The notes under the pieces are model-generated. The model was given only the letters and a program-made list of their open reading frames with translations. It ran no database searches and had not been told where the DNA came from. 64,000 nt of DNA from a virus. Lineage: Duplodnaviria; Caudoviricetes. Shown in pieces: positions 5,993-51,078 of the stretch; within the stretch, counting starts at the first letter, position 1; the number at the start of each line of letters is the position of its first letter. The position numbers were made by a program, and so were the translations under genes. Location of the stretch: positions 3,776 to 67,775 of IMG/VR virus record IMGVR_UViG_3300034155_000052, one strand, 5' to 3'.

Positions 5993-6091
5993 CTATTTTA
6001 AATAAATACCAACAATTCTATGCATAGTTTTCAATTGGTGTTGAAACAAATTTATTTTCAACATAATTAAAAGGAAAAACACAAAGGATAA

Positions 6092-6144
6092 AAAGCAATT
6101 CCTCCCTGTTTATATAACGAACATGGTTTCTTTGCTATATATTT
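6092..6144 (+). mobile_element. orphan right end of an IsrB/IS200-IS605-type element
   Basis: AAAGCAATTCCTCCCTG is identical (17 nt) to 19081..19097; it is followed by ..TTGCT and then ATGA at the same spacing as in element 2. Confidence 0.6.
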
Positions 6145-6480
6145 ATGAAACAATCAGAATTACAAAACTTACGTATTAAGTATATTAATTTACAAGATCA
6201 ATTAATTTCAACAATTGAAAAATCAAATTATGAAATAGATATTGACGGAGATGAAATAGATGAGATTCAAGGAAAGAGCATTATAGCAATTCAAGATCAG
6301 TTATCTCAGAACAATTTAAAGAAGCTTAGAGCGATACAATTAGCAATACAACGTATTGATAATAATGATTATGGTGATTGTGAAGAATGTGGAGAAGCAA
6401 TTGGTATAAAACGATTAGAGGCTATTCCTGGTATTTCTATCTGTGTGTGTTGTGCCGAGTTAATTGAAAAATTACAGTGA
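6145..6480 (+). CDS. dksA: DksA/TraR family C4 zinc-finger protein
   Basis: Coiled coil with D-E-I-D tip; YGDCEECGEAIGIKRLEAIP...CVCC. Confidence 0.85.
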   Translation: MKQSELQNLRIKYINLQDQLISTIEKSNYEIDIDGDEIDEIQGKSIIAIQDQLSQNNLKKLRAIQLAIQRIDNNDYGDCEECGEAIGIKRLEAIPGISICVCCAELIEKLQ

Positions 6481-15378: not shown

Positions 15379-16482
15379 ATGATTAATAAAAGCATTATTG
15401 AAAAAAACGTAAGGATATCGATTGTAGCAACTGGAGGTGGAGCTGGGGCACAAAATATGCTTTGGCAAATTCCTGGAATTTCTTCAGTTTTAATCGATTG
15501 TACCTTTCCATATGATTCGGAATTTACAAAAGATTATTTAGGATTTGAACCTGAAAAATATTGCTCACCTGAAACAGCGGTTGAATTAGCTATGCAAGCT
15601 TATTATAGAGCATATCAACCAAATAACGCTCCATCTATAGGTGTTGGGTGTACTGCATCGGTAGCAAGTACTGTAATTCATAAAGGTCAACATAGAATAT
15701 ATATAGCATCGGCATCGGAAAACGGTTGTGAGCTTACATCAATTGTATTAACCAAAGGACGTGGTGAAGAGGCCCGTATTATTGATGGTAAAATTTGTGA
15801 TATTGCCATAATTGAAGCATTAAATAAAGCTATTGGATATAATGATCAAAGTATTTTACCTAAAGATCTTAATATTATTAGTTATCAAGTAGAAGATGCT
15901 ACAGAATTAGCAAAGAAACAATTTTTTAAACATCCATATTTTTGTGCTGATACTGGAAAGAGATTAGAGAAAGAGCAAAAGCTTAATAGAGATAATGGTG
16001 ATGCTATATTTCCAGGATCGTTCAATCCGCCACACGATGGTCATTTTGGGATGGTTGAATCATACTGTTATTATAAACCTAATGCTAGTATAATATATTG
16101 TATTGAGACACAATCACCACATAAGGGAGATTTAACGATAACAGATATGCTTAATAGGGCGAAGATGTTAAAGGGAAATAATATATTATTTACTAAAGGT
16201 TTGGGATTATACTTAGATAAAGCAAAACATTTTGATAAAGCCAATATAATTATTGGAATAGATTCATTTATTAGGTTATTAGATGGTAAATGGGGTGTAG
16301 GTATAAAGGAATTGATTGAAGGATTTAAGAGTTGTGGCACACATTTTTATGTAGTAGACAGGGTAATTGATGGAAAGTTAGTTTCAATAAAAGACCAAAC
16401 ATTTGAAACTAATGGTTTAAATTTCACACCGCTAGATGGTAGGTGGGATATTAGCTCTACTGAATTACGAAATATTAAGTAA
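15379..16482 (+). CDS. CinA/PncC-like fold fused to an HxGH adenylyltransferase (NadD/NMNAT-like)
   Basis: N-half TGGG...IPGISS...PY..LG...SPETA.ELA parallels the CinA C-domain; C-half FPGSFNPPHDGH, IIIGIDSF, ISSTELR. Confidence 0.7.
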   Translation: MINKSIIEKNVRISIVATGGGAGAQNMLWQIPGISSVLIDCTFPYDSEFTKDYLGFEPEKYCSPETAVELAMQAYYRAYQPNNAPSIGVGCTASVASTVIHKGQHRIYIASASENGCELTSIVLTKGRGEEARIIDGKICDIAIIEALNKAIGYNDQSILPKDLNIISYQVEDATELAKKQFFKHPYFCADTGKRLEKEQKLNRDNGDAIFPGSFNPPHDGHFGMVESYCYYKPNASIIYCIETQSPHKGDLTITDMLNRAKMLKGNNILFTKGLGLYLDKAKHFDKANIIIGIDSFIRLLDGKWGVGIKELIEGFKSCGTHFYVVDRVIDGKLVSIKDQTFETNGLNFTPLDGRWDISSTELRNIK

Positions 16483-16483
16483 T

Positions 16484-16512
16484 GTTTTTACCAAAGAAAG
16501 ATTTATATCATG
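16484..16512 (+). promoter_or_regulatory. conserved leader GTTTTTACCAAAGAAAGATTTATATCATG of Trp-repeat genes
   Basis: Near-identical leader ends at the ATG at 16510, 28147, 42372, 43416, 49421 and 50282. Confidence 0.55.
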
Positions 16513-17445
16513 TCAACTGAAGATTGGTTTCATATATGCAGTACACCTGGATTAAGCGAAGAATTTATTAAGGAAAATTCTGATAAAGTAAATTGGATTT
16601 ATATATCAACTTATCAAAAATTAAGTGAAGGTTTTATAAGAGAGTTTTCTGATAAAGTATCATGGGAATCTATATCAATATCTCAAAAGCTTAGTGAAAA
16701 GTTTATTAAAGATTTTTATAATAAAGTAGATTGGTATTATATATCGAAATATCAAAAACTTAGTGAAGAGTTTATTAGTGAGTTTTCTGATATAGTAGAT
16801 TGGTTTAAAATAATAGAATATCAAAAACTAAGTGAAGAATTTATAACAAGGTTTTCTCATAAGATAAACTGGAATTCTATATCAATATCTCAAAAACTTA
16901 GTGAAGAATTTATTAGAAAAAATTCTACTAAAGTAAATTGGAACTTTATATCAAAATATCAAAAATTAAGTGAAGGGTTTATTAGAGAGTTTTATATTGA
17001 AGTAAACTGGGATTGTATATCACAATATCAAAAGTTAAGTCCAGAATTTATTAAAGAATATAATTTAACAATTCCACAAACATGTTGGTTATATACAGAT
17101 AAAGAATTTAAGAGAGAATATATTAAAAAACTTACTGATTATGAGATAATAGGAGATAATGTAATAGCATATAAGACATGTAGAAAAGACGGATATTCTA
17201 AATATAATTTTCAATATTTATATGAAGTTGGCGGAGAATATGAAAGTAATGCAAATTATAATATAGATGAACGAGATAGTTTCGGATTATCTGCCTGGAC
17301 AAAAAAAGGAGCATTATCATATTATGATGAAGGGAAGTTATTCAAAGTAGAGATAGATATAGATGATATCGCTGCTATTGTACATGAAGGAAAAAAGATA
17401 AGAGCGAGTAAGATAAAGATATTGGAAGAGGTGTCACATGATTGA
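16510..17445 (+). CDS. 22-aa Trp-repeat protein, paralogue 1 (8 repeats plus conserved C-terminal domain)
   Basis: Tandem (Q)KLSEEFIREFSDKVxWxxISxx repeats; C-domain AYK.CR.DGYS.YNFQY.YEVG...SFGLSAWT...GKLFKVEI...KIRASKIKILEE. Confidence 0.85.
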   Translation: MSTEDWFHICSTPGLSEEFIKENSDKVNWIYISTYQKLSEGFIREFSDKVSWESISISQKLSEKFIKDFYNKVDWYYISKYQKLSEEFISEFSDIVDWFKIIEYQKLSEEFITRFSHKINWNSISISQKLSEEFIRKNSTKVNWNFISKYQKLSEGFIREFYIEVNWDCISQYQKLSPEFIKEYNLTIPQTCWLYTDKEFKREYIKKLTDYEIIGDNVIAYKTCRKDGYSKYNFQYLYEVGGEYESNANYNIDERDSFGLSAWTKKGALSYYDEGKLFKVEIDIDDIAAIVHEGKKIRASKIKILEEVSHD

Positions 17446-17756
17446 TAATTTTACATTAGATGTTATTTGCGAATTAAAAGATTTAGAAAAAGCATTAATT
17501 CTTGGATTTTCAAATAACGGATTTGCTAAATCTTATTATGTTCATACAAGAACTGATACAACAGGATCTTATATTGAAAAAATACCTGTACTAACTTTTT
17601 GCTGGATATCTTCTGTAGACATTAATAAAAGTGTGTTTATAGTTGATCCATTAAATTATCTTCAAGATTTAATTATAGATTCTGGCCCAAGTGATATTTG
17701 TCTTATGGTTGAAAAATGGTTAAGCAAACAACCATATGGACCCGTTCCAGATATTG

Positions 17757-18030
17757 GTCATAACCCCCACCAAGCTTCTAGCTTGGAAGGGGCTTGTTAG
17801 AGTCATTTAATGCCAAATTTAGTACATAAACAAGTTAAATCAATGACTAGAGTATCCAGTCTTCCTACTCGTAAGAGTAGGAAGATTAAGGAAACTGAAT
17901 CATCTTCTCGTGGTAGAGAACAATATATTTCTAATGTTTCTCTAGTTGGAAATCCCTATGATGATCAGTCTCGAAGAGAGCAATTATCCAAATTGTCGCA
18001 AGATAATTTGGACTGGAAGGTAACTTCCAA
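17757..18030 (+). ncRNA. putative omega-RNA scaffold of IsrB element 1 (guide would be the ~16-20 nt 5' of 17757; 3' boundary approximate)
   Basis: Conserved across three copies; GNRA-capped hairpin 17987..18012 covaries with 45778..45803 and 38620..38631. Confidence 0.6.
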
Positions 18031-19069
18031 ATCTGTTACGAAAATATATGTTCCAGTAATTTCTTTTGTTGGTATTCCATTAATTCCTTGCTCTCCAAGA
18101 AGAGCAAAGGAATTAATGATAAAACATAAAGCGAAGAAGCAATGGAAATATGGTATTTTCTATATTAAATTAATTGAAAGAGATATAGGAAATATTCAAG
18201 AGATATCATGTGGAATAGATTCTGGATCTAAGAGAGAAGCAATTACTGTTAAATCCAAGAATAAAACATTTATTAATATTTTAGCTGATGCTAGAACGGG
18301 AATAAAAGAATCTATTGAAGTTAGAAGAAATATGAGAAGAGCAAGAAGGTTTAGGAAAACTCCTTGTAGAAAGAATAAATTAAATAGAAAAAGGAATATA
18401 AAATTTATTCCTCCATCAACTCGGGCAAGATGGAATTCTAAATTAAGGTTAATAAATATATTAAAAAAGATATATCCAATATCAATATATGTTGTAGAAG
18501 ATATAAAAGCGAACACAAAAGAAGGAAAGAAAAATTGGAATAAGAATTTTTCACCATTAGAAATAGGAAAGAAATATTTCTATAATATATTAAAAACATA
18601 TGGACATCTTATTTTAAAAGAAGGATGGGAAACAAGTGAAAAAAGAAAAGAATTAGGTTTGGTGAAAACCTATCATAAATTAGACAAAATATTTTCTGCA
18701 CATAATGTTGATAGTTGGGTTTTAGCCAATTTTCCTTTTGATATTCAAACACATCCTGAAAATATTGATATGTATTATTTCCAGCAAATTGAATTACATA
18801 GAAGACAATTACATATGTTACAGTTTGCTAAAGGAGGAAAAAGGAAAAGATATGGAGGGACAGTATCTCTTAGAATTCCTAAAGGAACAGTAGTAAAAAT
18901 AAAATATAAAAAGAAAGAAATAATATGTTATATTGGTGGAAATATGAATGGAAAATTATCAATCCATAATATGGAGAATGGGGAAAGAATAAGTAAAAGT
19001 ATAAATAAAGAAAATATAAAATATATGGGATATATAACTAAGTGGAAAGTAGAAAAAATAAAAGGATAA
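17810..19069 (+). CDS. isrB: IsrB (HNH-less IscB relative, RNA-guided RuvC nickase), copy 1; true start may lie downstream
   Basis: PLIP (PLMP/RRXRR domain), RuvC-I GIDSGS, Arg-rich bridge helix RRNMRRARR, RuvC-II VVEDI, RuvC-III HNVD; no HNH insert. Confidence 0.8.
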   Translation: MPNLVHKQVKSMTRVSSLPTRKSRKIKETESSSRGREQYISNVSLVGNPYDDQSRREQLSKLSQDNLDWKVTSKSVTKIYVPVISFVGIPLIPCSPRRAKELMIKHKAKKQWKYGIFYIKLIERDIGNIQEISCGIDSGSKREAITVKSKNKTFINILADARTGIKESIEVRRNMRRARRFRKTPCRKNKLNRKRNIKFIPPSTRARWNSKLRLINILKKIYPISIYVVEDIKANTKEGKKNWNKNFSPLEIGKKYFYNILKTYGHLILKEGWETSEKRKELGLVKTYHKLDKIFSAHNVDSWVLANFPFDIQTHPENIDMYYFQQIELHRRQLHMLQFAKGGKRKRYGGTVSLRIPKGTVVKIKYKKKEIICYIGGNMNGKLSIHNMENGERISKSINKENIKYMGYITKWKVEKIKG

Positions 19070-19260
19070 CAAGAAGGAGTAAAGCAATTCCTCCCTGCCT
19101 GCGTAGCATACAGGGTTCACTTGCTCATCTTGATGGAAGTGTTAGTAAAGGTGTTTCAATATATACTTTAAATACTCATCCTTATGAAAATTTAAATTTA
19201 TACTCAATTGTTTCGATAGAACCTGCATGGGTTTTGCACCATAAATAACAGGGTTAATAT

Positions 19261-24934: not shown

Positions 24935-27079
24935 ATGACAGCATTAATTATTGTAGAATCTCCGGCAAAAATTAAAACAATTTCAAAAATCCTTGGTCCA
25001 AATTATGTTATTAGAGCTACAGTTGGACACATTATAGATTTAGCAAAAGGTAAAGGAGGAGATCTTGGAATAGATATTTTAAATGGTTTTAAACCAAGAT
25101 ATGAAGTTTTACCAGATAAAAAAGATAAAATTAAAGCAATTGTGGATGCCGCAAAATCAGTTGATATTATTTATGTAGCTTCCGATCCTGATAGAGAAGG
25201 TGAAGCTATAGCTTTTCATATAGCCAATCAATTAAAACATTTAAATAAACCAATTAAACGCATTGAGTTTAATCAAATTACCAAAAAAGTAATTGAGAAT
25301 GCCGTAGAAAACCCACGTGATTTTGATCAAAATCTATTTGATGCTCAACAAGCGCGTAGGGTTTTAGATCGTATTGTTGGTTTTATGGTTTCTCCATTTA
25401 TTTCAAAGAAATTAAATGATAAACTAAGCGCTGGAAGAGTACAATCTGTTGTTTTACGTATGATTGTTGATAGGGATCGGGAAATATCTTCATTTGTTCC
25501 TGATGTTTATTATAATATAAATGCAACATTATCAAAAACACAAGATAAAGCAGATTGTTTTGTTGCTAAATTTCAACAAAGAGTGGAAAACGAACAAGAA
25601 GCTATTAAAATTAAAGAAGATTTGGACAAATCAACATATGAAATATTTGATATTCAAACTAAACCAACTCCTAGAAAAGCAAATCCTCCGCTTACTACTT
25701 CAGCTCTCCTACAAGAAGCCTCCACAAAACTAAAGTTTAAAGCCGATAGAACTACTAAAGCAGCTCAATCATTATATGAAGGTGGGTATATTACCTACAT
25801 TCGTACAGATGCTGTTAGGAATTCAGAGGAATCAATTATAGAGGTAAGGAAGTATATTACTTCAAATGGATTTAGTATTCCAAAATCTCCTAATGAATAT
25901 CAAAACAAAGATGGGGCACAAGACGCACATGAAGCTATTAGACCTACACATGTAGATATGTTACCAGAAAAAATTCCTGTTGAAACAGATCAGCAAAATG
26001 TATATGAATTAATTTGGAGAATGTTTGTAGCATCTCAAATGGAGCCGGCTATTTTTGAGGTTGTTAAGGTTAGTATTAAAGCTTCTTCTGGTCATCATCT
26101 TGTTGCGGAAGGGAAAATCCTTAGAGAAGAAGGTTGGATGAGTGTTATGAAACCTCTCCTTAAAAAGGATAAGGATGTTATACTTCCAATTTTAAATATA
26201 AAAGATAAACTTTCTTTGGTAACACCCAAAGTTAAAATGGAGAAAAGCCAAACAAAACCACCGGCTAGATATTCGGAAGCATCTTTAATAGCAGAATTAG
26301 AAAGAAAAGAAATAGGAAGACCGTCTACGTATGCTAGTACAATTTCTAGAATAGCTACAAGAAGATATGTTAAAGATACTCCAAATGGTTTAGTACCAAC
26401 AGATTTAGGGTTTACTGTAATAGATAATTTAAAAGATTCTTTTTCTTTTATGGATTATTTATATACAGCTAATATGGAAAAGAAACTAGATGAAATAGCT
26501 CATGGTAAATTGGAATATATTCCAATGATGACGGAGTTTTTTGAAGGATTCAAAAATGAATTTCAAAAAGCACGAGGGGAACAGGGCATGAATGCAGGTA
26601 TAAAATGTCCTAAATGTGGAAGTGATATGGTTGTAAGAAAATCTAAATATGGATTTTTTGCAGGGTGTGTAAGATATAAGGGTGGGTGTGATGGAATTGT
26701 AAGCATTCTTGTTGAAGATGGTAAAGTATTAGAAAAAGAACACAAAGCTAAAGTAGATGATAGTATTAAATGTCCAGATTGTGGATCTGGAATGGTATAT
26801 AGACCAGATGGAAGGTTTGGTCCATTTTATTCTTGTTCTAATTATCCTAAGTGTTATGGTAAAAGAAAAACTCCATTTGGAAAGACATGTTCTAAATGTG
26901 GAAATGAATTATATGCTACATTATTTAATGGAAATCTAAAATTAGCATGTATGGGATATCCTAACTGTAAAAATATTGAAGATATTCCAAGTGGGTCTAA
27001 TGTAGATTGGTTAGACCCTGAAAAAATAACCCCACCAACATATGATAAAAAAGTTGAAAAGGTTTTGTTAAAATATTAA
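24935..27079 (+). CDS. topA: DNA topoisomerase I (type IA) with C-terminal zinc ribbons
   Basis: IVESPAK, ASDPDREGEAIA, SAGRVQS, ITYIRTD (catalytic Tyr), AHEAIRPT, IGRPSTYA, repeated CP.CG zinc ribbons. Confidence 0.95.
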   Translation: MTALIIVESPAKIKTISKILGPNYVIRATVGHIIDLAKGKGGDLGIDILNGFKPRYEVLPDKKDKIKAIVDAAKSVDIIYVASDPDREGEAIAFHIANQLKHLNKPIKRIEFNQITKKVIENAVENPRDFDQNLFDAQQARRVLDRIVGFMVSPFISKKLNDKLSAGRVQSVVLRMIVDRDREISSFVPDVYYNINATLSKTQDKADCFVAKFQQRVENEQEAIKIKEDLDKSTYEIFDIQTKPTPRKANPPLTTSALLQEASTKLKFKADRTTKAAQSLYEGGYITYIRTDAVRNSEESIIEVRKYITSNGFSIPKSPNEYQNKDGAQDAHEAIRPTHVDMLPEKIPVETDQQNVYELIWRMFVASQMEPAIFEVVKVSIKASSGHHLVAEGKILREEGWMSVMKPLLKKDKDVILPILNIKDKLSLVTPKVKMEKSQTKPPARYSEASLIAELERKEIGRPSTYASTISRIATRRYVKDTPNGLVPTDLGFTVIDNLKDSFSFMDYLYTANMEKKLDEIAHGKLEYIPMMTEFFEGFKNEFQKARGEQGMNAGIKCPKCGSDMVVRKSKYGFFAGCVRYKGGCDGIVSILVEDGKVLEKEHKAKVDDSIKCPDCGSGMVYRPDGRFGPFYSCSNYPKCYGKRKTPFGKTCSKCGNELYATLFNGNLKLACMGYPNCKNIEDIPSGSNVDWLDPEKITPPTYDKKVEKVLLKY

Positions 27080-27090
27080 AGGTATAAATT

Positions 27091-28119
27091 ATGAAAAATG
27101 ATTTAAGCGAAGAGGTTATTAGAGAAAATTCATATGATTTAGACTGGTATAATGTATCAGAATATGAAAAATTAAGTGAAAGTTTAATTAGAGAATTTTC
27201 TAATAAAGTAAATTGGACAATGATATCAAGATATCAAAAACTTAGTGAAAACTTTATTAGAGAATTTTCTGATAAGGTAAACTGGGAGTTTATATCAAGT
27301 TCTCAAAAATTAAGTGAAAACTTTATTAGAGAATTTTCTAATAAGGTATATTGGGAGTTAATATCGCAGTTTCAAATTTTAAGTGAAGAATTTATTATAG
27401 AGTTTTTTAATTGGTTAAATATGGATGTGATATCACAACATCAAAAGTTAAGTGAAGAATTTATTAGAAAATATCCTCATAAGGTATATTGGTATAATGT
27501 ATCAGAATATCAAAAATTAAGTGAAAACTTTATTAAAGAATTTTCTGATAAAGTAGATTGGGGTGGTATATCAATTGATCAAAAACTTAGCGAAGAATTT
27601 ATTAGAGAATTTTCTGATAAGGTAGATTGGGGTTGTATATCAAAATATCAAAAGTTAAGTGAGGGGTTTATAAGAGAGTTTTCTGATAAAATATTTTGGA
27701 AATACATATCTAAATATCAAAAGTTAAGCCAAGAATATGATTTATATATTCCCGAAACATGTTGGTTGTATAAAGATAAAGAACTTAAACGAGAATATAT
27801 TAAGAAAAATACAAATTATGAGATAATTGGAGATAAAGTAATTGCATATAAATCTTGTAAGGAAAATGGATATTCTAAATTTAATTTCCAATATTTATAT
27901 GAGATCGGGAAAGAATATGAAAGTCATGCAGATTATAATTTAAATGATCCAAATAGTTTTGGATTATCTGCTTGGACAAAAGAAAGAGCATTAGAGTATT
28001 ATAATAAAGGCAAACTATTTAAAGTAGAAATAGATTTAGAAGATATTGCTGCGGTTGTATATGAAGGAAACAAGATTAGAGCGAGTAAGATTAAAATATT
28101 AGAAGAGATTAATATTTAA
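27091..28119 (+). CDS. 22-aa Trp-repeat protein, paralogue 2 (about 9 repeats)
   Basis: Same repeats and C-terminal domain as 16510. Confidence 0.85.
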   Translation: MKNDLSEEVIRENSYDLDWYNVSEYEKLSESLIREFSNKVNWTMISRYQKLSENFIREFSDKVNWEFISSSQKLSENFIREFSNKVYWELISQFQILSEEFIIEFFNWLNMDVISQHQKLSEEFIRKYPHKVYWYNVSEYQKLSENFIKEFSDKVDWGGISIDQKLSEEFIREFSDKVDWGCISKYQKLSEGFIREFSDKIFWKYISKYQKLSQEYDLYIPETCWLYKDKELKREYIKKNTNYEIIGDKVIAYKSCKENGYSKFNFQYLYEIGKEYESHADYNLNDPNSFGLSAWTKERALEYYNKGKLFKVEIDLEDIAAVVYEGNKIRASKIKILEEINI

Positions 28120-28146
28120 ATATTTTTACCAAAGAAGATTTATATC

Positions 28147-29092
28147 ATGTTAAATGCAGAAAAAATTCATTATGATGAAAGTTGGTATAGTATATCAACT
28201 TACTATAAATTAAGCGAAGAATTTATTAGGGATAATTCTGATAAAGTACATTGGGAAACTATATCAACTAATCAAAAATTAAGCGAAAATTTAATTAGAG
28301 AGTTTTCTGATAAAGTATATTGGGGTTTATTATCAGAATGTCAAAAGCTTAGTGAAAAATTTATTATAGAATTTACCGATAAAGTAAATTGGGTATATGT
28401 GTCAAAAACACAAAAGCTAAGCGAAGAGTTTATAAGAGAAAACTCTGAAAAGGTTAATTGGTGGAAAATATCAGAAATTAAGCGAAGCGTTTATAAGGGA
28501 AAATTCTAATAAGGTACATTGGATAAATATATCAATTTTTCAAAAACTAAGTGAAGAATTTATTAGAGAATTTTCTGATAAAGTAAATTGGTATTATATA
28601 TCAAAAGATCAAAAGTTAAGCGAAAATTTTATTAGAGAATTTTCTGATAAAATACACATTAATAATGTATCAAAATATCAAAAGTTAAGCCAAGAGTTTA
28701 TTAAAGAATATAATTTAGAAATATGTCCCACATGTTGGTTATATAAGGATAAGGAATTTAAGAGACAATATATTAAGAAAATTAAATGTTATGAAATTAT
28801 TGGAGATAAAATAATTGCATATAAATCTTGTAGATTAGATGGACATTCTAAATTTAATTTCCAATATTGTTATAAAGTTGGGGGAGAATACGAATGTCAT
28901 GCAGATTATAATATAACTAATATAGATAGCTTTGGATTATCAGCATGGACAAAGGAAAGAGCGTTATTATATTATGATAGAGGGAAGTTATTTAAGGTAG
29001 AGATAGATTTAGAAGATATTGCAGCAATAATTTGTGAAGGAAACAAGATTAGAGCTTCCAAAATTAAAATATTAGAAGAAATTATTATCTAA
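28147..29092 (+). pseudogene. 22-aa Trp-repeat protein, paralogue 3, frameshifted near 28468
   Basis: Repeats and the full C-domain continue in another frame to TAA at 29090..29092. Confidence 0.8.
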
Positions 29093-29340
29093 TGAAAAAA
29101 ATACAAATACCAAATACATTAAAAAATATATTATTAGTGGAAAATACTAGTAGACAAAATAAATTGTGGTTAGTTACTACTTGGAAACATTTTGAAAACT
29201 GGTATATTGATTGGAAATGGGCTGGAGAACCAATGAAATCTAGAATGTTATTTAAATTTGCTCCAGAAGACAAATGGATTGAAGCAAAAAGTTTTGAAGA
29301 AGATTTATTTCCAACATATAAATTTGCTAAAGATAAATAA
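29092..29340 (+). CDS. hypothetical protein
   Basis: 82-aa ORF, start overlaps the upstream stop. Confidence 0.6.
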   Translation: MKKIQIPNTLKNILLVENTSRQNKLWLVTTWKHFENWYIDWKWAGEPMKSRMLFKFAPEDKWIEAKSFEEDLFPTYKFAKDK

Positions 29341-38388: not shown

Positions 38389-38650
38389 GTTATAACCCCA
38401 TCAAGCCTCCAGCTTGGAAAGGGGCTTGTTAGAGTCGTTTAATGCCAAATTTAGTACATAAACAAGTTAAATTAATGACTAGAGTACCCGGTCTTCCTAC
38501 TCGTAAGAGTAGGAAGATACAGGAAACTGAATCATCTTCTCGTGGCAGAGAAAAATATATTTCTGATACTTCTCTAGTTGGAAATCCCTATGATGATCAG
38601 TCTCGAAGAGAGCAATTACCGGAGCAATCCGTGAGGAAGGTAACTTCCAA
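38389..38650 (+). ncRNA. putative omega-RNA scaffold of element 2 (boundary approximate)
   Basis: Homologous to 17757 ff.; shortened CGGA-GCAA-TCCG hairpin at 38620..38631. Confidence 0.55.
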
Positions 38651-39677
38651 CCATTGGATTTCCATTATTTCTAATAATGAGAATCCTCTTATGCCTTGTC
38701 ATCCTGCTAGAGCAAGACAATTACTTAAACAAAATAAAGCTAAAAAACAATTTGCTAATTCTATTTGTTATCTTAAACTAATTAAAAGAAATATAGGAAA
38801 CATTCAAGATATTTCTTGTGGAATTGATTCAGGATCTAAAAGAGAAGCGATAACTGTAAAATCAAAGAATAAAACATTTATTAATATTTTAGCTGATGCT
38901 AGAATAGGAGTAAAAGAATCTATTGAAATTAGAAGAAACATGAGAAGATCAAGGAGGTTTAGGAAAACTCCTTGTAGAAAGAATAAATATAATAGAAAAA
39001 GAAATGTAAATTTTATTCCTCCGTCAACAAGAGCAAGATGGAATTCTAAGTTAAGGTTGATAAATATATTAAAGAAGATATATCCAATATCGATATATGT
39101 TGTTGAAGATATAAAAGCTAAAACATTAAAAGGTAAAAGAAATTGGAATAAGAATTTTTCTCCATTAGAAGTTGGGAAAACATATTTCTATAATATTATT
39201 AAAACATATGGAAGTCTTGTTCTAAAAGAAGGTTGGGAAACATCTGAAAAAAGAAAATCTTTAAATTTGGTGAAAACTAATAAAAAATTAGATAAAATAT
39301 TTTCCGCACATAATGTTGATAGTTGGGTTTTAGCAAATTTCCCATTTAATATTCAAATATATCCTGAAAATATTGATATGTATTATTTCCAACAAATTGA
39401 GTTACACAGAAGACAATTACATATGTTGCAGTTTTCTAAAAGAGGAAAAAGAAAGAGATATGGAGGGACAGTATCTCTTGGAATACCTAAGGGAACAGTA
39501 ATAAAAGTAAAATATAAAAAGAAAGAAATATATGCTTATGTTGGTGGAAATATGGAGGGGAAATTATCTATACATAATTTAGAAACAGGAAAAAGAATTT
39601 GTCAAAGTATAGATAAGGATAATGTTGAGTTATATAAAGGATGGATAGAAAAATGGAAAACAGAAAAAATAAAATGA
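38442..39677 (+). CDS. isrB: IsrB, copy 2
   Basis: PLMPCHPARARQLL, GIDSGS, RRNMRRSRR, VVEDI, HNVD; no HNH. Confidence 0.8.
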   Translation: MPNLVHKQVKLMTRVPGLPTRKSRKIQETESSSRGREKYISDTSLVGNPYDDQSRREQLPEQSVRKVTSNHWISIISNNENPLMPCHPARARQLLKQNKAKKQFANSICYLKLIKRNIGNIQDISCGIDSGSKREAITVKSKNKTFINILADARIGVKESIEIRRNMRRSRRFRKTPCRKNKYNRKRNVNFIPPSTRARWNSKLRLINILKKIYPISIYVVEDIKAKTLKGKRNWNKNFSPLEVGKTYFYNIIKTYGSLVLKEGWETSEKRKSLNLVKTNKKLDKIFSAHNVDSWVLANFPFNIQIYPENIDMYYFQQIELHRRQLHMLQFSKRGKRKRYGGTVSLGIPKGTVIKVKYKKKEIYAYVGGNMEGKLSIHNLETGKRICQSIDKDNVELYKGWIEKWKTEKIK

Positions 39678-39790
39678 TAACAAAAAGGAGTAGAGCAATT
39701 CTTCCATGCCTGCTACGCAGACAGGGGTTTCCTTGCTCATTTCAAATGATATTCGATAGTTGGCTCTTAACAGGAAAGAATTATTAAAAT

Positions 39791-42340: not shown

Positions 42341-42371
42341 TAATTATGTTTACCAAAGAAAGATTTATATT

Positions 42372-43364
42372 ATGTTAAATGAAGAAAAAGATTGGGATGA
42401 AATATCCCACACATTTGGATTAAGTGAAGAATTTATAAGAGAAAACGCTGATAAATTAGATTGGGGACTAACATCAAGTTTTCAAAAATTAAGTGAAGAT
42501 TTTATTAGGGAATTTTCTGATAAAGTAGATTGGCAATATATTTCAATATCCCAAAAACTTAGTGAGGATTTTATAAGAGAATTTTCAGAAAAGGTATCTT
42601 GGAGAGATATATCAATTCACCAAATACTTAGTGAGTCATTAATTAAAGATAATGTTAATAAAGTAAAATGGTATTATATATCAGAAGGTCAAAAGCTTAG
42701 TGAAGAATTTATTAGAGAATTTTCTGATAAAGTAGATTGGAAACTAATATCAAAATATCAAAAACTTAGTGAAGGTTTTATTAAGGAATTTTCTGATAAA
42801 GTAGATTGGTATAATATATCGGTTTATCAAAAACTTAGTGAAGGTTTTATTAAGGAATTTTCCTATAAAGTAGATTGGGCTTGTATATCTGTATGTCAAA
42901 AATTAAGTGAAAAATTTATAAGAGAAAATTTAAAACAATTAAATTTTGATTATATATCTTGGTATCAAAAATTAAGTCCAGAATATATTAAAGAATATAA
43001 TTTAGAGATATCAGAAAATTTTTGGTTATATAAGGATAAAGAATTTAAACGAGAATATATTAAAAACAATACAGAATATGATATTATTGGAGATAAAGTA
43101 ATAGCATATAAGAGTTGTCGATCAGATGGATATTCTTTATATAATTTTCAATATCATTATGAGGTTGGTGGAGAATATGAATGTCATGCAAATTCCGATA
43201 CAGAATACGAGGATAGTTTTGGATTATCTGCGTGGACAAAAGTAGGTGCATTAGCTTGTTATTCTAAAGGAAAATTACTTAAAGTAGAAATTGATTTAGA
43301 TGATATTGCCTGTATAACGCTTATAGATAAAAAAATTAGGGCAAGTAAAATTAAAATATTATAA
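42372..43364 (+). CDS. 22-aa Trp-repeat protein, paralogue 4 (about 9 repeats)
   Basis: Same repeats, C-domain and leader. Confidence 0.85.
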   Translation: MLNEEKDWDEISHTFGLSEEFIRENADKLDWGLTSSFQKLSEDFIREFSDKVDWQYISISQKLSEDFIREFSEKVSWRDISIHQILSESLIKDNVNKVKWYYISEGQKLSEEFIREFSDKVDWKLISKYQKLSEGFIKEFSDKVDWYNISVYQKLSEGFIKEFSYKVDWACISVCQKLSEKFIRENLKQLNFDYISWYQKLSPEYIKEYNLEISENFWLYKDKEFKREYIKNNTEYDIIGDKVIAYKSCRSDGYSLYNFQYHYEVGGEYECHANSDTEYEDSFGLSAWTKVGALACYSKGKLLKVEIDLDDIACITLIDKKIRASKIKIL

Positions 43365-43415
43365 GAGATTAGTTTTTAAATATTATTATACTTTTACCAA
43401 AGAAAGATTTATATT

Positions 43416-44144
43416 ATGTTAAACGAAGGAAAAGATTGGGACAAAATATCATATACACCAGGATTAAGCGAAGAATTTATTAGAGAAAATTCTGATAAAG
43501 CATGTTGGATTTGTATATCCAGATTTCAAAAACTAAGTGAAGAATTTATTAGAGAGAATGCTAATAAAGTAAACTGGGATTATATATCGTGTTATCAAAA
43601 GCTTAGTGAAACATTTATTAGAGAGTTTTTTGATAAAGTAAATTGGGAATATATATCAATATATCAAAAACTAAGTGAAGGATTTATTAGAGAATATTCT
43701 GATAAAATATATTTGAATAATATAGTAAAATTTCAAAAGTTAAGTCCAGAATTTATTAAAGAATATAATTTAATAATTCCAGAAACAAATTGGTTTTATA
43801 AAGATAAAGAATATAAGAGAGAATATATTAATAAAAACACAGAATATGAGATAATTGGAGATAAAGTAATTGCTTATAAAACATGTAGATCAGATGGATA
43901 TTCTAAATATAATTTCCAATATTATTATGAAGTAGGAAAAGAATATGAAGCTCATGCAGATTATAATATAGATGAAAATGGTTTTGGTTTATCGGCGTGG
44001 ACAAAAGATGGAGCATTATCATACTGTAATAATGGAAAACTATTTAAAGTAGAAATAGATTTGGAAGATATTGCCGCTATTGTTCATGAAGGTAATAAGA
44101 CAAGAGCTTCTAAAATTAAAATATTAGAAGAAATTAGTGTTTAA
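43416..44144 (+). CDS. 22-aa Trp-repeat protein, paralogue 5 (about 5 repeats)
   Basis: Same repeats, C-domain and leader. Confidence 0.85.
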   Translation: MLNEGKDWDKISYTPGLSEEFIRENSDKACWICISRFQKLSEEFIRENANKVNWDYISCYQKLSETFIREFFDKVNWEYISIYQKLSEGFIREYSDKIYLNNIVKFQKLSPEFIKEYNLIIPETNWFYKDKEYKREYINKNTEYEIIGDKVIAYKTCRSDGYSKYNFQYYYEVGKEYEAHADYNIDENGFGLSAWTKDGALSYCNNGKLFKVEIDLEDIAAIVHEGNKTRASKIKILEEISV

Positions 44145-44149
44145 AACCC

Positions 44150-45207: not shown

Positions 45208-45501
45208 ATGAAAGAAGATACAACAATAACTGAAACGGCATCTACTAAACTTTGGAATAAGATTAAGGATGCACCAATTGATATTTTTGGATTACCAAAT
45301 CAATTAATTAGTCAATGGGTACAACGAGAAGAGAAATTAGAACAAGCAGAACCAGGTGCAATATTTTTACAATTAAAAACAGGTGCCGTTCTACCCGCTC
45401 TTGAACAAGCTTTATATTCTGTTCGACTTGGTAAATCAGAACGATTTTCTATTACCCAAGTAGATAAATATACAGTAATTAAAATTATTCCAAAAAATTA
45501 A
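45208..45501 (+). CDS. hypothetical protein
   Basis: 97-aa ORF. Confidence 0.65.
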   Translation: MKEDTTITETASTKLWNKIKDAPIDIFGLPNQLISQWVQREEKLEQAEPGAIFLQLKTGAVLPALEQALYSVRLGKSERFSITQVDKYTVIKIIPKN

Positions 45502-45509
45502 GCATGACA

Positions 45510-45547
45510 ATTCGTGGAAGAACATGCATATTTAATGCTAGGATGCT
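45510..45547 (+). repeat. 38-bp direct repeat, copy A (left flank/guide of element 3)
   Basis: 35/38 identical to 46868..46905. Confidence 0.9.
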
Positions 45548-45820
45548 GTCATAACCCCCATCAAGTTTTCATCTTGATCGAGGCTTGTTAGAGTCATTTA
45601 ATGCCAAATTTAGTACATAAACAAGTTAAATCAATGACTAGAGTATCCGGTCTTCCTGCTCGTAAGAGTAGGAAGATTAAGGAAACTGAATCATCTTCCT
45701 GTGGCAAGGAAAAATATATTTCTAATGTTTCTCTAGTTGGAAATCCCTATGATGATCAGTCTCGAAGAGAGCAATTATCCAAATTATCGAAAGGTAATTT
45801 GGACTGGAAGGTAACTTCCA
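45548..45820 (+). ncRNA. putative omega-RNA scaffold of element 3 (boundary approximate)
   Basis: Homologous to 17757 ff.; hairpin TCCAAATTATC-GAAA-GGTAATTTGGA at 45778..45803. Confidence 0.55.
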
Positions 45821-46867
45821 AATTTGTTACGAAAATATATGTTCCAGTAATTTCTTGTACTGGAGTTCCATTAATGCCTTGCTCTCCAAGGAGAGCAAAA
45901 GAATTAATGAGAAAATATAAAGCGAAAAAGCAGTGGAGATATGGTATTTTCTATATTAAATTACTAGAAAGAGATATAGGAAATATTCAAGAGATATCAT
46001 GTGGAATAGATTCTGGATCTAAGAGAGAAGCGATAACGGTAAAATCCAAGAATAAAACTTTTATTAATGTTTTAGCAGATGCTAGAACAGGAGTAAAAGA
46101 ATCTCTTGAAGTTAGAAAAAATATGAGAAGGGCAAGAAGATTTAAAAAAACTCCTTGTAGAAAGAATAAATTAAATAGAAAAAGGAATAAAAACTTTATT
46201 CCACCATCAACAAGGGCGAGATGGAATTCCAAGTTAAGGTTGATAAATATATTAAAGAAAATATATCCAATATCGATATATGTTGTAGAAGATATAAAGG
46301 CAAAAACTTTAAAAGGAAAGAAAAATTGGAATAAGAATTTTTCACCATTAGAAGTAGGAAAGAAATATTTCTATAATATATTAAAAACATATGGAAATCT
46401 TATTTTGAAAGAAGGATGGGAAACATTTAACAAAAGAACAGAATTAGGTTTAGTAAAAACAACTAAGAAATTAGATAAAATATTTTCTGCGCATAATGTT
46501 GATAGTTGGGTTTTGGCTAATTTCCCTTTTAATATTCAAACATATCCTGAAAATATTGATATGTATTATTTTCAACAAATTGAATTGCATAGAAGACAAT
46601 TACACATGTTACAGTTTGCTAAGGGAGGGAAAAGGAAAAGATATGGAGGAACAGTATCTCTTGGAATACCAAAGGGAACAGTAGTAATAGCAAAATATAA
46701 AAAGAAAGAAATATATAGTTATATTGGTGGAAATATGAATGGTAAATTATCAATCCATAATATGCAGAATGGAGAAAGAATAAGTAAATGTATAAATAAA
46801 GAAGATATAAAATATATGGGATATATAGCAAAGTGGAAAGTAGAAAAAATAACAGAAAATAACGAGC
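45548..46867 (+). mobile_element. IS200/IS605-family (OMEGA) element 3, right end missing
   Basis: Left end GTCATAACCCCC..GAGGCTTGTTAG; sequence switches to the flank duplicate where the right-end hairpin should begin. Confidence 0.8.
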
Positions 46868-46893
46868 ATTCGTGGAAGAACATGCATATTTAA
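45601..46893 (+). CDS. isrB: IsrB, copy 3 (C-terminus extended by read-through into the duplicated flank)
   Basis: PLMPCSPRRAKELM, GIDSGS, VVEDI, HNVD; no HNH. Confidence 0.8.
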   Translation: MPNLVHKQVKSMTRVSGLPARKSRKIKETESSSCGKEKYISNVSLVGNPYDDQSRREQLSKLSKGNLDWKVTSKFVTKIYVPVISCTGVPLMPCSPRRAKELMRKYKAKKQWRYGIFYIKLLERDIGNIQEISCGIDSGSKREAITVKSKNKTFINVLADARTGVKESLEVRKNMRRARRFKKTPCRKNKLNRKRNKNFIPPSTRARWNSKLRLINILKKIYPISIYVVEDIKAKTLKGKKNWNKNFSPLEVGKKYFYNILKTYGNLILKEGWETFNKRTELGLVKTTKKLDKIFSAHNVDSWVLANFPFNIQTYPENIDMYYFQQIELHRRQLHMLQFAKGGKRKRYGGTVSLGIPKGTVVIAKYKKKEIYSYIGGNMNGKLSIHNMQNGERISKCINKEDIKYMGYIAKWKVEKITENNEHSWKNMHI

Positions 46894-46905
46894 CGCTAGG
46901 TTGTT
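46868..46905 (+). repeat. 38-bp direct repeat, copy B, followed by ATGG
   Basis: ATTCGTGGAAGAACATGCATATTTAAcGCTAGGtTGtT vs copy A ...TTTAAtGCTAGGaTGcT. Confidence 0.9.
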
Positions 46906-47300
46906 ATGGGAGAAAAGAAAATGGGTTTATTCTTTGTCCGTCTATTGAAAACCGAATATTACAACTAAGTGAATCATTAGTTAATTTTGAAAAATTAATG
47001 GATTATCTAGACTCTATAAAGTTATTTGATCGTCCAATTATCAATCAAAATGCTATAATTCACTTAGTTTATCATATTCAGGATAAGTTTAATCAAAAAA
47101 TTAAACCTATTTGGACAGATCACGAATATCATTTAATCGAGCGTTTTATCCAAATGCATAAAAACTGTGGTATATATTCTCAAATTATACTTACAGCCGA
47201 AGAATTTGTTGATAAAACTCAGGTTGATACTCCTATATTTATTAAAAATTCCAAAGAACCATTATTAAACCTTACCAATATTCGCGGCAGAAGATTTTGA
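46872..47300 (+). CDS. hypothetical protein (target gene of element 3, restored downstream)
   Basis: GTG start; its first 11 codons are also present upstream of the element at 45514. Confidence 0.65.
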   Translation: MEEHAYLTLGCYGRKENGFILCPSIENRILQLSESLVNFEKLMDYLDSIKLFDRPIINQNAIIHLVYHIQDKFNQKIKPIWTDHEYHLIERFIQMHKNCGIYSQIILTAEEFVDKTQVDTPIFIKNSKEPLLNLTNIRGRRF

Positions 47301-48833: not shown

Positions 48834-49384
48834 TAAAGATAGCAAATAATAGGGTAAAGCTACTTGATATTTTACGTCATTATGGATTTAAGATAGAGCA
48901 AAACTATCAACGTCCAATATGGAGTAATAATATTGTTTGCCCTTTAGCATCACATAAAGGGGCAAAAGAGAGAACTCCATCTTTTGGATATCATTTTGCA
49001 AGAGATTATTTTTCATGTTTTGGGTGTGGAAAAGCCGGTAGAGCTGTTGAATTCATAGCTGAATATGAACAGATCCCGAGGGGTGTTGTAGCTGAGAGAA
49101 TATTATCTCAATATGGTGGTAATGATATTACATCAGATGATTTTAAAGATTATCAAGATGATTTAACAAATATTCTTTTAGATGGGTCAAAGTATTTACA
49201 AATACTAATACAAAAAAATAAAAATAACCCTAAAGAATTACAAAAAATAGAAAAAGTGATATGGTGGTTAGATTTTTATTTAATGTCTAAAGTACAAAAT
49301 AAAAAGATTCAACCTCAAGATCTTGAATTTATAATAAATAAAGCAAAAAACCTACTTAATAATCAGGATATTATTTTATTTTAA
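48737..49384 (+). CDS. stand-alone CHC2 zinc-finger (primase zinc-binding domain) protein
   Basis: CPLASH...ERTPSF...YFSCFGCGKAG.AVEFI; no TOPRIM domain. Confidence 0.8.
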   Translation: MHRVSHSTKPNSGSDSSGESGNTEDNSEKFSLIKIANNRVKLLDILRHYGFKIEQNYQRPIWSNNIVCPLASHKGAKERTPSFGYHFARDYFSCFGCGKAGRAVEFIAEYEQIPRGVVAERILSQYGGNDITSDDFKDYQDDLTNILLDGSKYLQILIQKNKNNPKELQKIEKVIWWLDFYLMSKVQNKKIQPQDLEFIINKAKNLLNNQDIILF

Positions 49385-49420
49385 TTGAAAATATATTTTT
49401 ACCAAAGAAAGATTTGTGTT

Positions 49421-50251
49421 ATGTTAAAAGAAGACGAATGGGATGAAATATCAAGAACACCTGGATTAAGTGAAGAATTTATTAGGGAGAATTCTGATAA
49501 AATAACTTGGTATAATATATCAGAATATCAAAAACTTAGTGAAGGATTTATTAGAGAATTTTCTGATAAAGTAGATTGGTGGTATATATCAATTTATCAA
49601 AAGCTAAGTGAAGGATTTATTAGAGAGTTTTCTAATAAAATATATTGGGATTTAATAGAAAAATATCAAAAATTAAGTGAAGGGTTTATTAGAGACTTTT
49701 CTAATAAAGTAAATTGGATAAATATATCAAAATACCAAAAATTAAGTGAAGAATTTATTATAGAAAACCATGATAAAGTAAATAGATATAATATATTTAA
49801 ATATCAAAAACTAGGAAAAGATCTTATCAAAAAATATAATATTAACATACACACTCCTGAAACAAATTGGTTATATAAAGATAAAGAATATAAGAGAAAA
49901 TATATTAAAGCAAATACAGAATATGAGATTGTTGGAGATAATGTAATAGCATATAAAAGTTGTAGATCTGATGGGTATTCATGTTATAATTTCCAATATC
50001 ATTATGAAGTTGGTGGAGAATATGAATGTCATGCAGATTATAATATAGATATTGAAAATAGCTTTGGATTATCTGCATGGACAAAAGACGGAGCATTACA
50101 ATATTATAATAAAGGAAAATTATTTAAAGTAGAAATAGATTTGGAAGATATTGCAGCTATTGTGCATGATGGAAAAAAGATAAGAGCAAGTAAAATAAAA
50201 ATATTAGAAGAAGCTGAAATATTTCCATATGAACAAGAAGTTTGTTTGTAA
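49421..50251 (+). CDS. 22-aa Trp-repeat protein, paralogue 6 (about 6 repeats)
   Basis: ATG at 49421 follows the conserved leader. Confidence 0.85.
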   Translation: MLKEDEWDEISRTPGLSEEFIRENSDKITWYNISEYQKLSEGFIREFSDKVDWWYISIYQKLSEGFIREFSNKIYWDLIEKYQKLSEGFIRDFSNKVNWINISKYQKLSEEFIIENHDKVNRYNIFKYQKLGKDLIKKYNINIHTPETNWLYKDKEYKRKYIKANTEYEIVGDNVIAYKSCRSDGYSCYNFQYHYEVGGEYECHADYNIDIENSFGLSAWTKDGALQYYNKGKLFKVEIDLEDIAAIVHDGKKIRASKIKILEEAEIFPYEQEVCL

Positions 50252-50281
50252 TTATATTTTTACCAAAGAAAGGTTTATATT

Positions 50282-51076
50282 ATGTTAAATGAACAAAAAG
50301 ATTGGGATGAAATTTCGGTTAAGCTTGGTTTAACCGAAGTGTTTATTAGAGAAAATGCTAATAAAGTAAATTGGTATTTTATATCATATTATCAAAAACT
50401 AAGTGAAGAATTTATTAGAGAATTTTCTGATAAAATAGATTGGGACTGTGTATCGCAACAGCAAAAACTAAGTGAAGATTTTATTAGAGAGTTTTCTAAA
50501 AAAGTAAATTGGTATCATATTTCAATTTATCAGAAATTAAGCGAAGAATTTATTAGAGAATTTTCTAATGAAGTAGATTGGAATAATATATCAATTTATC
50601 AAAAGCTTAGTGAGGGATTTATAAGAGAGTTTTTTAAAAAATTATATTATATAGAAAGATATCAGAAATTAAGTCCAGAATTTATTAAGGAATATAATTT
50701 AACAATTCCAGAAACATGTTGGTTATATAAGGATAAAGAATTTAAAAGAGAATATATTAAAACAAATACATCATATGAGATTATTGGAGATAAAGTAATT
50801 GCATATAAAACATGTAGGGAAGATGGATATTCTAGATTTAATTTCCAATATCATTATGAAACCGGTAAAGAATATGAAGCTCATGCAGATTACAATATAA
50901 ATAATTATAATAGTTTTGGTTTATCTGCTTGGATAAAAGAAAAAGCAATAGAATATTATAATATAGGGAAATTATTTAAAGTAGAAATAGATTTAGATGA
51001 TATAGCAGCAATAGTCCATGAAGGAAATAAGATAAGAGCAAGTAAGATTAAAATATTGGAAGAGGTTGGTTTTTAA
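50282..51076 (+). CDS. 22-aa Trp-repeat protein, paralogue 7 (about 6 repeats)
   Basis: Same repeats, C-domain and leader. Confidence 0.85.
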   Translation: MLNEQKDWDEISVKLGLTEVFIRENANKVNWYFISYYQKLSEEFIREFSDKIDWDCVSQQQKLSEDFIREFSKKVNWYHISIYQKLSEEFIREFSNEVDWNNISIYQKLSEGFIREFFKKLYYIERYQKLSPEFIKEYNLTIPETCWLYKDKEFKREYIKTNTSYEIIGDKVIAYKTCREDGYSRFNFQYHYETGKEYEAHADYNINNYNSFGLSAWIKEKAIEYYNIGKLFKVEIDLDDIAAIVHEGNKIRASKIKILEEVGF

Positions 51077-51078
51077 AA

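Follow-up and report, generated by a model that had tools for sequence, protein, structure and literature searches.

An IsrB element in a huge-phage genome lies between two unequal copies of its target, next to an intact host gene

How does an RNA-guided element that inserts into a gene come to lie between two copies of the start of that gene, with the gene whole again behind it? This question is raised by element 3, the last of three IsrB-type elements in a 64-kb stretch of the IMG/VR viral record IMGVR_UViG_3300034155_000052; this whole stretch is called the window. The source record is 67.8 kb long with a CheckV completeness of about 16%, which indicates a very large phage, and the G+C content of the window is 29%. 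The three elements are each about 1.35 kb long and share 76-93% mutual identity. Judged by its sequence, element 3 is an IsrB/omega-RNA element of the IS200/IS605 type. We found that it is bracketed by an imperfect direct repeat and that one of its ends is missing. On balance, we think it probable that an ordinary insertion was followed by a microhomology-type join between the locus and an unoccupied copy of it, which would have repaired the gene and immobilised the element. The features that carry this argument are the following.

45510..45547, + strand: left (guide-side) repeat copy, the original 5' end of the gene for a 142-amino-acid protein (g142), with its GTG at 45514; reads ATG, GGA and TGC
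46868..46905, + strand: right repeat copy, the working 5' end of g142; reads ACG, GGT and TGT
46906..46909, + strand: ATGG, the target-adjacent motif (TAM) and original insertion point, inside codon 12 (divided into T and AT)
46872..47300, + strand: g142, GTG start, intact, function unassigned; 65 homologs; conserved in this group of huge phages

Read directly, the two repeat copies are equal over 38 nucleotides (nt) except at three positions. The left copy has T at 45536, A at 45543 and C at 45546, where the right copy has C at 46894 (ATG/ACG), T at 46901 (GGA/GGT) and T at 46904 (TGC/TGT). These mismatches lie 12, 5 and 2 nt from the ATGG, and the repeat contains no exact run longer than 26 nt. 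When the upstream flank was matched to the downstream flank without gaps, the best score was 30, compared with a shuffle maximum of 13-16. A 21-nt word from the guide side was found at exactly two sites in the window at up to three mismatches, with none expected by chance. The recurrence of the flank with three changes, followed by ATGG, which an earlier note on this DNA had described, is thus borne out. A comparable repeat was present at none of the 14 other IsrB loci used for comparison (elements 1 and 2 and 12 viral loci), so this arrangement is not a habit of the family. Shorter flank repeats in the 12 viral loci did not exceed chance, with the exception of an end-hairpin repeat in one distant element, L032.

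Two complete copies in the window served to define the ends of element 3.

17757..19132, + strand: element 1, comparison copy, complete with end hairpin; splits a gene
38389..39745, + strand: element 2, comparison copy, complete with end hairpin; intergenic

The left repeat copy is severed after codon 11 plus the first base of codon 12, and it ends exactly at the start shared by elements 1, 2 and a further element, L024. The ends of element 1 are fixed by an uninterrupted homolog of the gene that it splits (P0196, ...VPDI-DGSVSKG...), whose sequence is exactly that predicted from the removal of 17757-19132; the TAM of element 1 is therefore ATGG at 19133. The TAM of element 2 is ATGA at 39746, and that of L024 is probably GTGA. 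DtIsrB, the IsrB of Desulfovirgula thermocuniculi, has the TAM NTGA (PMC9581776), and the TAMs in the window agree with it. Since the left boundary of element 3 is that of elements 1, 2 and L024 and the insertion lies before ATGG as in element 1, the first step appears canonical. A canonical left end together with a repeat that stops exactly at ATGG likewise indicates that the first event was an ordinary insertion, and we regard this step as well supported by the sequence. As a separate observation, the gene split by element 1 encodes about 144 amino acids (17438-17756 plus 19133-19248); P0196, a homolog from the Joint Genome Institute (JGI), reads across the site, and in this phage the insertion is unrepaired.

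The opposite end of element 3 is different. In IS605 terms, the omega-RNA side of these elements is the right end (RE), and the end that the earlier note called 'right' is the left end (LE), which abuts the TAM. Elements 1, 2 and L024 end here in a two-tier hairpin with an outer stem AGCAA/TTGCT and an inner stem CCCTG/CAGGG. This two-tier hairpin is not present in element 3, where the right repeat copy occupies the place of the hairpin end of about 70 nt seen in elements 1 and 2. The loss of this hairpin had been noticed before, and it holds in comparison with elements 1, 2 and L024. Elements of the IS200/IS605 family have hairpins at both ends and insert without target duplication; element 3 lacks the hairpin at one end and has a 38-nt imperfect direct repeat instead. 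Replacement of the TAM-side end by the 5' end of a gene removes the structure needed for transposition by TnpA. A Y1 TnpA (PF01797) had no match in the 67.8-kb record, which is weak evidence because the record is only about 16% of the genome.

Other hairpin ends were noted. In L032, the same 21-nt palindromic hairpin stands at both ends (L032:2243-2263 and L032:3535-3555), the layout with two hairpins that is to be expected and that is lost in element 3. At 6082-6145 of the window lies an orphan TAM-side end of the IsrB type (AAGCAATTCCTCCCTG...TTTGCT), which is followed by ATGA and has neither an omega-RNA nor isrB upstream; it is the converse of element 3, where all but this end is kept. The possibility that this orphan end (at 6092) shares the short deletion of element 3 was rejected, since MAFFT aligns it otherwise.

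The homology of element 3 to elements 1 and 2 is clear up to 46852, inside the last isrB codons, and is followed by a short stretch of its own.

46853..46867, + strand: junction stretch CAGAAAATAACGAGC, a degraded remnant of the 3' untranslated end of the element, or filler

A 2-nt insertion in this stretch puts the old TAA out of frame. Directly before ATTCGTGG, element 3 has kept the outer hairpin stem's 5' arm, GAGCA, and the left flank reads ACAATTCGTGG. Both facts make it plausible that the join took place at the hairpin's foot, at CA(A)TTC, and we place the junction somewhere within 46853-46871. We also considered that the right copy might reach further left, into a second copy of the end of the upstream gene. 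This alignment was rejected, as it needs four gaps and lacks the conserved ...IIPKN stop.

Is the downstream gene really the repaired form of an interrupted gene? The open reading frame (ORF) at 46872-47300 is intact from its GTG, as the earlier note had stated, and its N-terminus is conserved across the family. Among the 65 homologs of g142, 17 were aligned, and E3, Y6, L7, G10, C11, G13 and R14 were invariant in this alignment. This indicates that the gene needs the 12 codons that it receives from the right copy. The neighbourhood points the same way.

45208..45501, + strand: upstream gene up97, an ORF of 97 amino acids, function unassigned; direct left neighbour of g142 in relatives; close alleles P0192-P0194

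The order peptide deformylase, thioredoxin, up97, g142 and four downstream genes is conserved at 17 related loci from metagenomes; there, no IsrB separates up97 from g142, and the gap between the two is 15-80 nt. It follows that element 3 has been inserted into a conserved block. Close alleles of both up97 and g142 share contig sizes of 12503 and 4346 nt, sizes that are listed for no IsrB match, and we infer from this that unoccupied close relatives exist as well. A phage collection gave no match, and the 142-amino-acid gene was not found on the records of the IsrB-bearing viral loci.

Four close relatives of g142 are 94-97% identical to it (P0001, P0188, P0189 and P0190). Among the five alleles, that of the window included, 7 of the 9 variable residues fall at positions 4-40, beside the IsrB target (46872-47000; Fisher P 0.003). 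Over the long term, positions 4-40 have been conserved no less than the protein's middle part, and there is hardly any variation in up97. Such clustering despite long-term conservation suggests that diverged sequence was exchanged at exactly that place, and residues 4-40 look like a local patch of exchanged, diverged sequence.

Taken together, these data suggest the following course of events. An IsrB element without a transposase of its own inserted directly 5' of ATGG, inside codon 12 of g142, severing the invariant N-terminal residues and making the 20 nt on its left the guide. The occupied locus would then have been joined to an unoccupied copy at the foot of the TAM-side hairpin, either by an illegitimate crossover or by polymerase stalling and a template switch via the short CA(A)TTC homology. 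The partner may have been a co-infecting relative or an excised sister genome; an occupied sister copy is ruled out as the template, because a tandem element would result. The product would have kept the left flank, the omega-RNA and IsrB, lost the hairpin end, and resumed in the empty allele 4 nt before the GTG. With this, the gene would be complete once more, for which it was probably selected, a TnpA could neither excise nor move the element any more, and IsrB would have gained a 13-residue tail.

We then asked what element 3 has kept. Its RNA and protein parts are as follows.

45548..45834, + strand: omega-RNA scaffold, 93% identical to that of element 1; ends in a GGAAGG...CUUCC stem-loop at 45805-45820
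45528..45547, + strand: predicted 20-nt omega-RNA guide, the flank directly 5' of the conserved scaffold
45835..46893, + strand: IsrB coding region, with PLMP, split RuvC and no HNH; frame open from ATG 45601, stop at 46891-46893

Conservation sets in at 45548 with GTYATAACCCC, which is common to four elements with unrelated flanks. Since the conserved part begins there, the preceding 20 nt should be the guide, as described for IscB/IsrB (Meers 2023; Hirano 2022); the length of 20 nt was borrowed from DtIsrB (PMC9581776) and is here a prediction. Synonymous divergence (dS) between copies is 0.08 in the stretch of about 290 nt upstream, vs 0.32 in the protein part, and the consensus fold of five sequences has 72 pairs, 16 of them with compensatory changes. 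The low dS and the compensatory pairing indicate that this stretch is an RNA, the omega-RNA, and not the N-terminus of a protein. No Rfam family matches it. The terminal stem-loop at 45805-45820 (GGAAGGUAACUUCC) carries a GGAAGG that resembles a Shine-Dalgarno sequence and has a terminator-like score; it recalls the terminal hairpin with a Shine-Dalgarno sequence that has been described for DtIsrB.

In each of the three copies (45601-45837, 17810-18046 and 38442-38654) and in 15 other aligned relatives, the isrB frame is also open over part of the scaffold, starting at an ATG that lies 53 nt within it. Within this overlapping frame, insertions and deletions between the copies come in multiples of three, the ratio of nonsynonymous to synonymous divergence (dN/dS) is 0.55-0.7 at low dS, and the predicted local distance difference test score (pLDDT) is about 30. 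From the last omega-RNA hairpin to the PLMP domain, no ATG, GTG or TTG occurs in frame. IsrB would have to start at ATA or ATT, unless the scaffold is translated as well.

The IsrB protein encoded by each copy matches the Pfam family RRXRR (2.4e-31) and the DtIsrB structure 8DMB (1.3e-34, from residue 79). In the alignment to DtIsrB (residues 79-369), VPLMPCSPRRAKEL falls on the PLMP strand, and the catalytic motifs GIDSGS, VVEDI and HNVDSW on the GID, VEDI and HN.D motifs. Counted from the PLMP domain, the protein has about 350 residues, and no HNH domain was found in the Pfam search. An AlphaFold model had a mean pLDDT of 50, too poor for use. In comparison with elements 1 and 2, dN/dS in the protein part is 0.18-0.26. 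This indicates purifying selection, and thus that all three isrB genes were kept working. The last 13 codons of the element 3 gene (from 46852) are a foreign tail, with the stop at 46893, 22 nt inside the next gene; this tail was found in none of the 3100 proteins in the IsrB homolog set.

Why do the two repeat copies differ? The earlier note saw in the gene copy a recoded target and a snapshot of escape from self-targeting. The recoding is not supported: at protein level, the gene copy has Thr8 like all four close relatives, and the Met on the guide side is the odd one. The gene copy therefore looks like an ordinary allele, and the guide mismatches every known allele at position 12 (protein level, Met vs Thr8 in five alleles). 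ACG and TGC are rare codons in this genome (ACG in 25 of 739 Thr codons; TGC in 22 of 223 Cys codons, compared with 201 TGT). Since both are rare and change is AT-biased, the simplest history is one C-to-T change on each copy. All three mismatches fall inside the 20-nt target, which is not significant (hypergeometric P 0.135). From the sequences compared, the allelic difference would be sufficient to explain them, and most simply they are the ordinary divergence of two parental copies, or later drift.

The idea of escape from self-targeting supposes that the copies were identical when they formed, by way of an excised sister genome, that IsrB nicked the restored target, and that mutations near the TAM were selected. 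It would account for the confinement of all three differences to those 12 nt of the 38-nt repeat that are nearest the TAM, for the silence of two of them in the gene copy, and for the change of TGC to TGT there, which follows the codon bias. Silent differences are typical of ordinary alleles too, and position 12 was changed on the guide side, while the gene copy keeps the clade-wide Thr with its rare ACG codon. The probability of the clustering is about 0.14 for the 20-nt target; it falls to about 0.03 for a 12-nt window, but this window was picked after the fact. In addition, nothing indicates that a single nick harms this phage. We consider such an escape improbable, and the picture of a snapshot is not supported. 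The mismatches may still have an effect. DtIsrB tolerates mismatches at positions 1 and 3 and is sensitive mid-target (PMC12188381). By analogy, an enzyme like DtIsrB would probably be stopped by the three mismatches, since two of these lie outside positions 1 and 3. The resident target is, as a side effect, a poor match to the guide and is likely protected by it; selection for this protection is not supported.

Could element 3 instead be a free-standing homing cassette? Without its end, it would act like a homing endonuclease gene of the T4 type: an omega-RNA made by read-through from upstream would target unoccupied alleles in co-infecting phages, repair of the nick from the occupied genome would copy the cassette in, the mismatches would shield its own target, and the intact host gene would spare the phage any cost. 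Element 3 would then be a transposon in transition to a free-standing gene for an RNA-guided homing nickase, one that spreads by nick-induced recombination between co-infecting phages. Several features of the locus fit. It sits between two conserved co-oriented genes, which offer long homology arms, and the upstream one can supply a guide transcript. IsrB and the omega-RNA are intact and constrained, and the 67.8-kb contig has no Y1 transposase. Presence or absence of the element differs among relatives (up97 is the direct neighbour of g142 at 17 related loci), there is excess amino-acid variation beside the site, as co-conversion tracts would give, and three mismatches, some of them mid-target, should block a DtIsrB-like enzyme (PMC12188381). 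On the other side, Met in the guide against Thr in all five alleles gives at least one mid-target mismatch, at the sensitive position 12, and at protein level the guide would thus not recognise the unoccupied alleles. The arrangement is also unique among 15 IsrB loci and 3100 homologs, the missing transposase means little in a contig of about 16% of the genome, and the tailed IsrB may or may not be active. We therefore regard homing, and the transition that it implies, as doubtful.

Several observations weigh against the two-step origin itself. No known allele has the ATG/GGA/TGC combination of the left copy, and Thr8 is present in five of five alleles including that of the window. Scans of viral, metagenome and genome data with the gene or with a back-translated pattern of the empty site returned no DNA of a near relative. 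The junction is not a clean microhomology product: the stretch 46853-46867 can be brought into line with the other copies only by allowing for three substitutions, a 2-nt insertion and a 10-11-nt deletion, and the CAATTC switch point is short of one A. The CA(A)TTC switch proposed in the earlier note is thus plausible in outline and inexact in detail. Moreover, the IsrB protein that spans the junction exists in one JGI contig only, and no independent assembly stands behind it. An assembly that joined occupied and empty variants would explain why this protein was seen nowhere else in what is a single metagenome assembly. We regard such a chimera as unlikely, and give it very little weight, since the join holds 15 nt found nowhere else in the window, the end of the element and the flank have no common word long enough to mislead an assembler, and the 26-nt exact run is spanned by reads and by the usual k-mer sizes. 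A single non-canonical insertion with a 38-bp target duplication, for example by capture of a linear element fragment at staggered breaks, would produce the direct repeat that flanks the insert. It would leave the three mismatches to be explained, and fragment capture would not give both the exact canonical left end and a repeat that ends at ATGG; we consider it very improbable. Recombination with an empty, divergent allele, which the earlier note had proposed as the event that repaired the gene and immobilised the element, remains the best explanation.

Elsewhere in the window, at least seven paralogous genes consist of 69-nt (23-amino-acid) tandem repeats (...SEEFIRE.SDKVNW..IS.YQKL...), at 16482-17445, 27033-29093, 42350-44145 and 49327-51077. 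They have a common C-terminal domain, each is preceded by a conserved leader of about 50 nt, and they are spread over the window.

OMEGA (short for obligate mobile element-guided activity) nucleases are believed to persist through their cutting of the vacant site that excision leaves behind. Element 3 is a natural case of one that is no longer a transposon: the host gene is unharmed, and an intact nuclease with its guide RNA lies beside a near-match of its own target. The locus supplies a pair of substrates for mismatch tolerance, a perfect and a three-mismatch target with the same TAM, and it is a concrete place to look for RNA-guided homing between phages. If homing did take place, the spare mismatched copy of the target would both keep the host gene whole and shield the phage's own genome. 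The weight of the case is limited by its being a single, unreplicated event, and the locus stands as one unusual case; it does not represent a new kind of system.

Among known systems, element 3 is most directly compared with the IsrB-omega-RNA OMEGA elements of the IS200/IS605 (ISC1) type, such as DtIsrB (8DMB; Hirano 2022, PMC9581776; Meers 2023). It shares with them a protein of about 350 amino acids with PLMP and RuvC and without HNH, a structured RNA of about 290 nt upstream, a guide taken from the outside flank, a 3' NTGR TAM, the lack of a transposase of its own and the same orientation as the upstream gene. Unlike these elements, element 3 has no TAM-side hairpin, stands between imperfect 38-nt copies of its target and does not disrupt its host gene, and its IsrB carries a 13-residue foreign tail and has no canonical start codon beside the PLMP domain. 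Like the free-standing homing endonuclease genes of T4-like phages (intronless homing, PMC13565253), it is a nuclease gene between conserved phage genes that is absent from relatives, the target in the donor differs at a few bases, and variation clusters beside the site. Unlike in those genes, recognition would be RNA-guided, the enzyme is a predicted nickase, and the guide matches no sampled allele perfectly. Integrative elements such as the prophages in icd or transfer RNA genes carry a replacement for the end of their target gene. There, as here, the original gene end is displaced, and the gene stays complete thanks to a second copy that differs slightly. In those elements, the spare copy belongs to the mobile unit, and the integrase brings it in at each insertion, whereas in element 3 it would be a one-off replacement of a transposon end. 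IStrons, which combine TnpB of IS605/IS607 elements with a group I intron (10.1101/2023.11.20.567912), are likewise OMEGA elements in which the cost to the interrupted gene has been removed. IStrons restore the gene by RNA splicing and keep their mobility, whereas the repair next to element 3 would have taken place in DNA and ended it.

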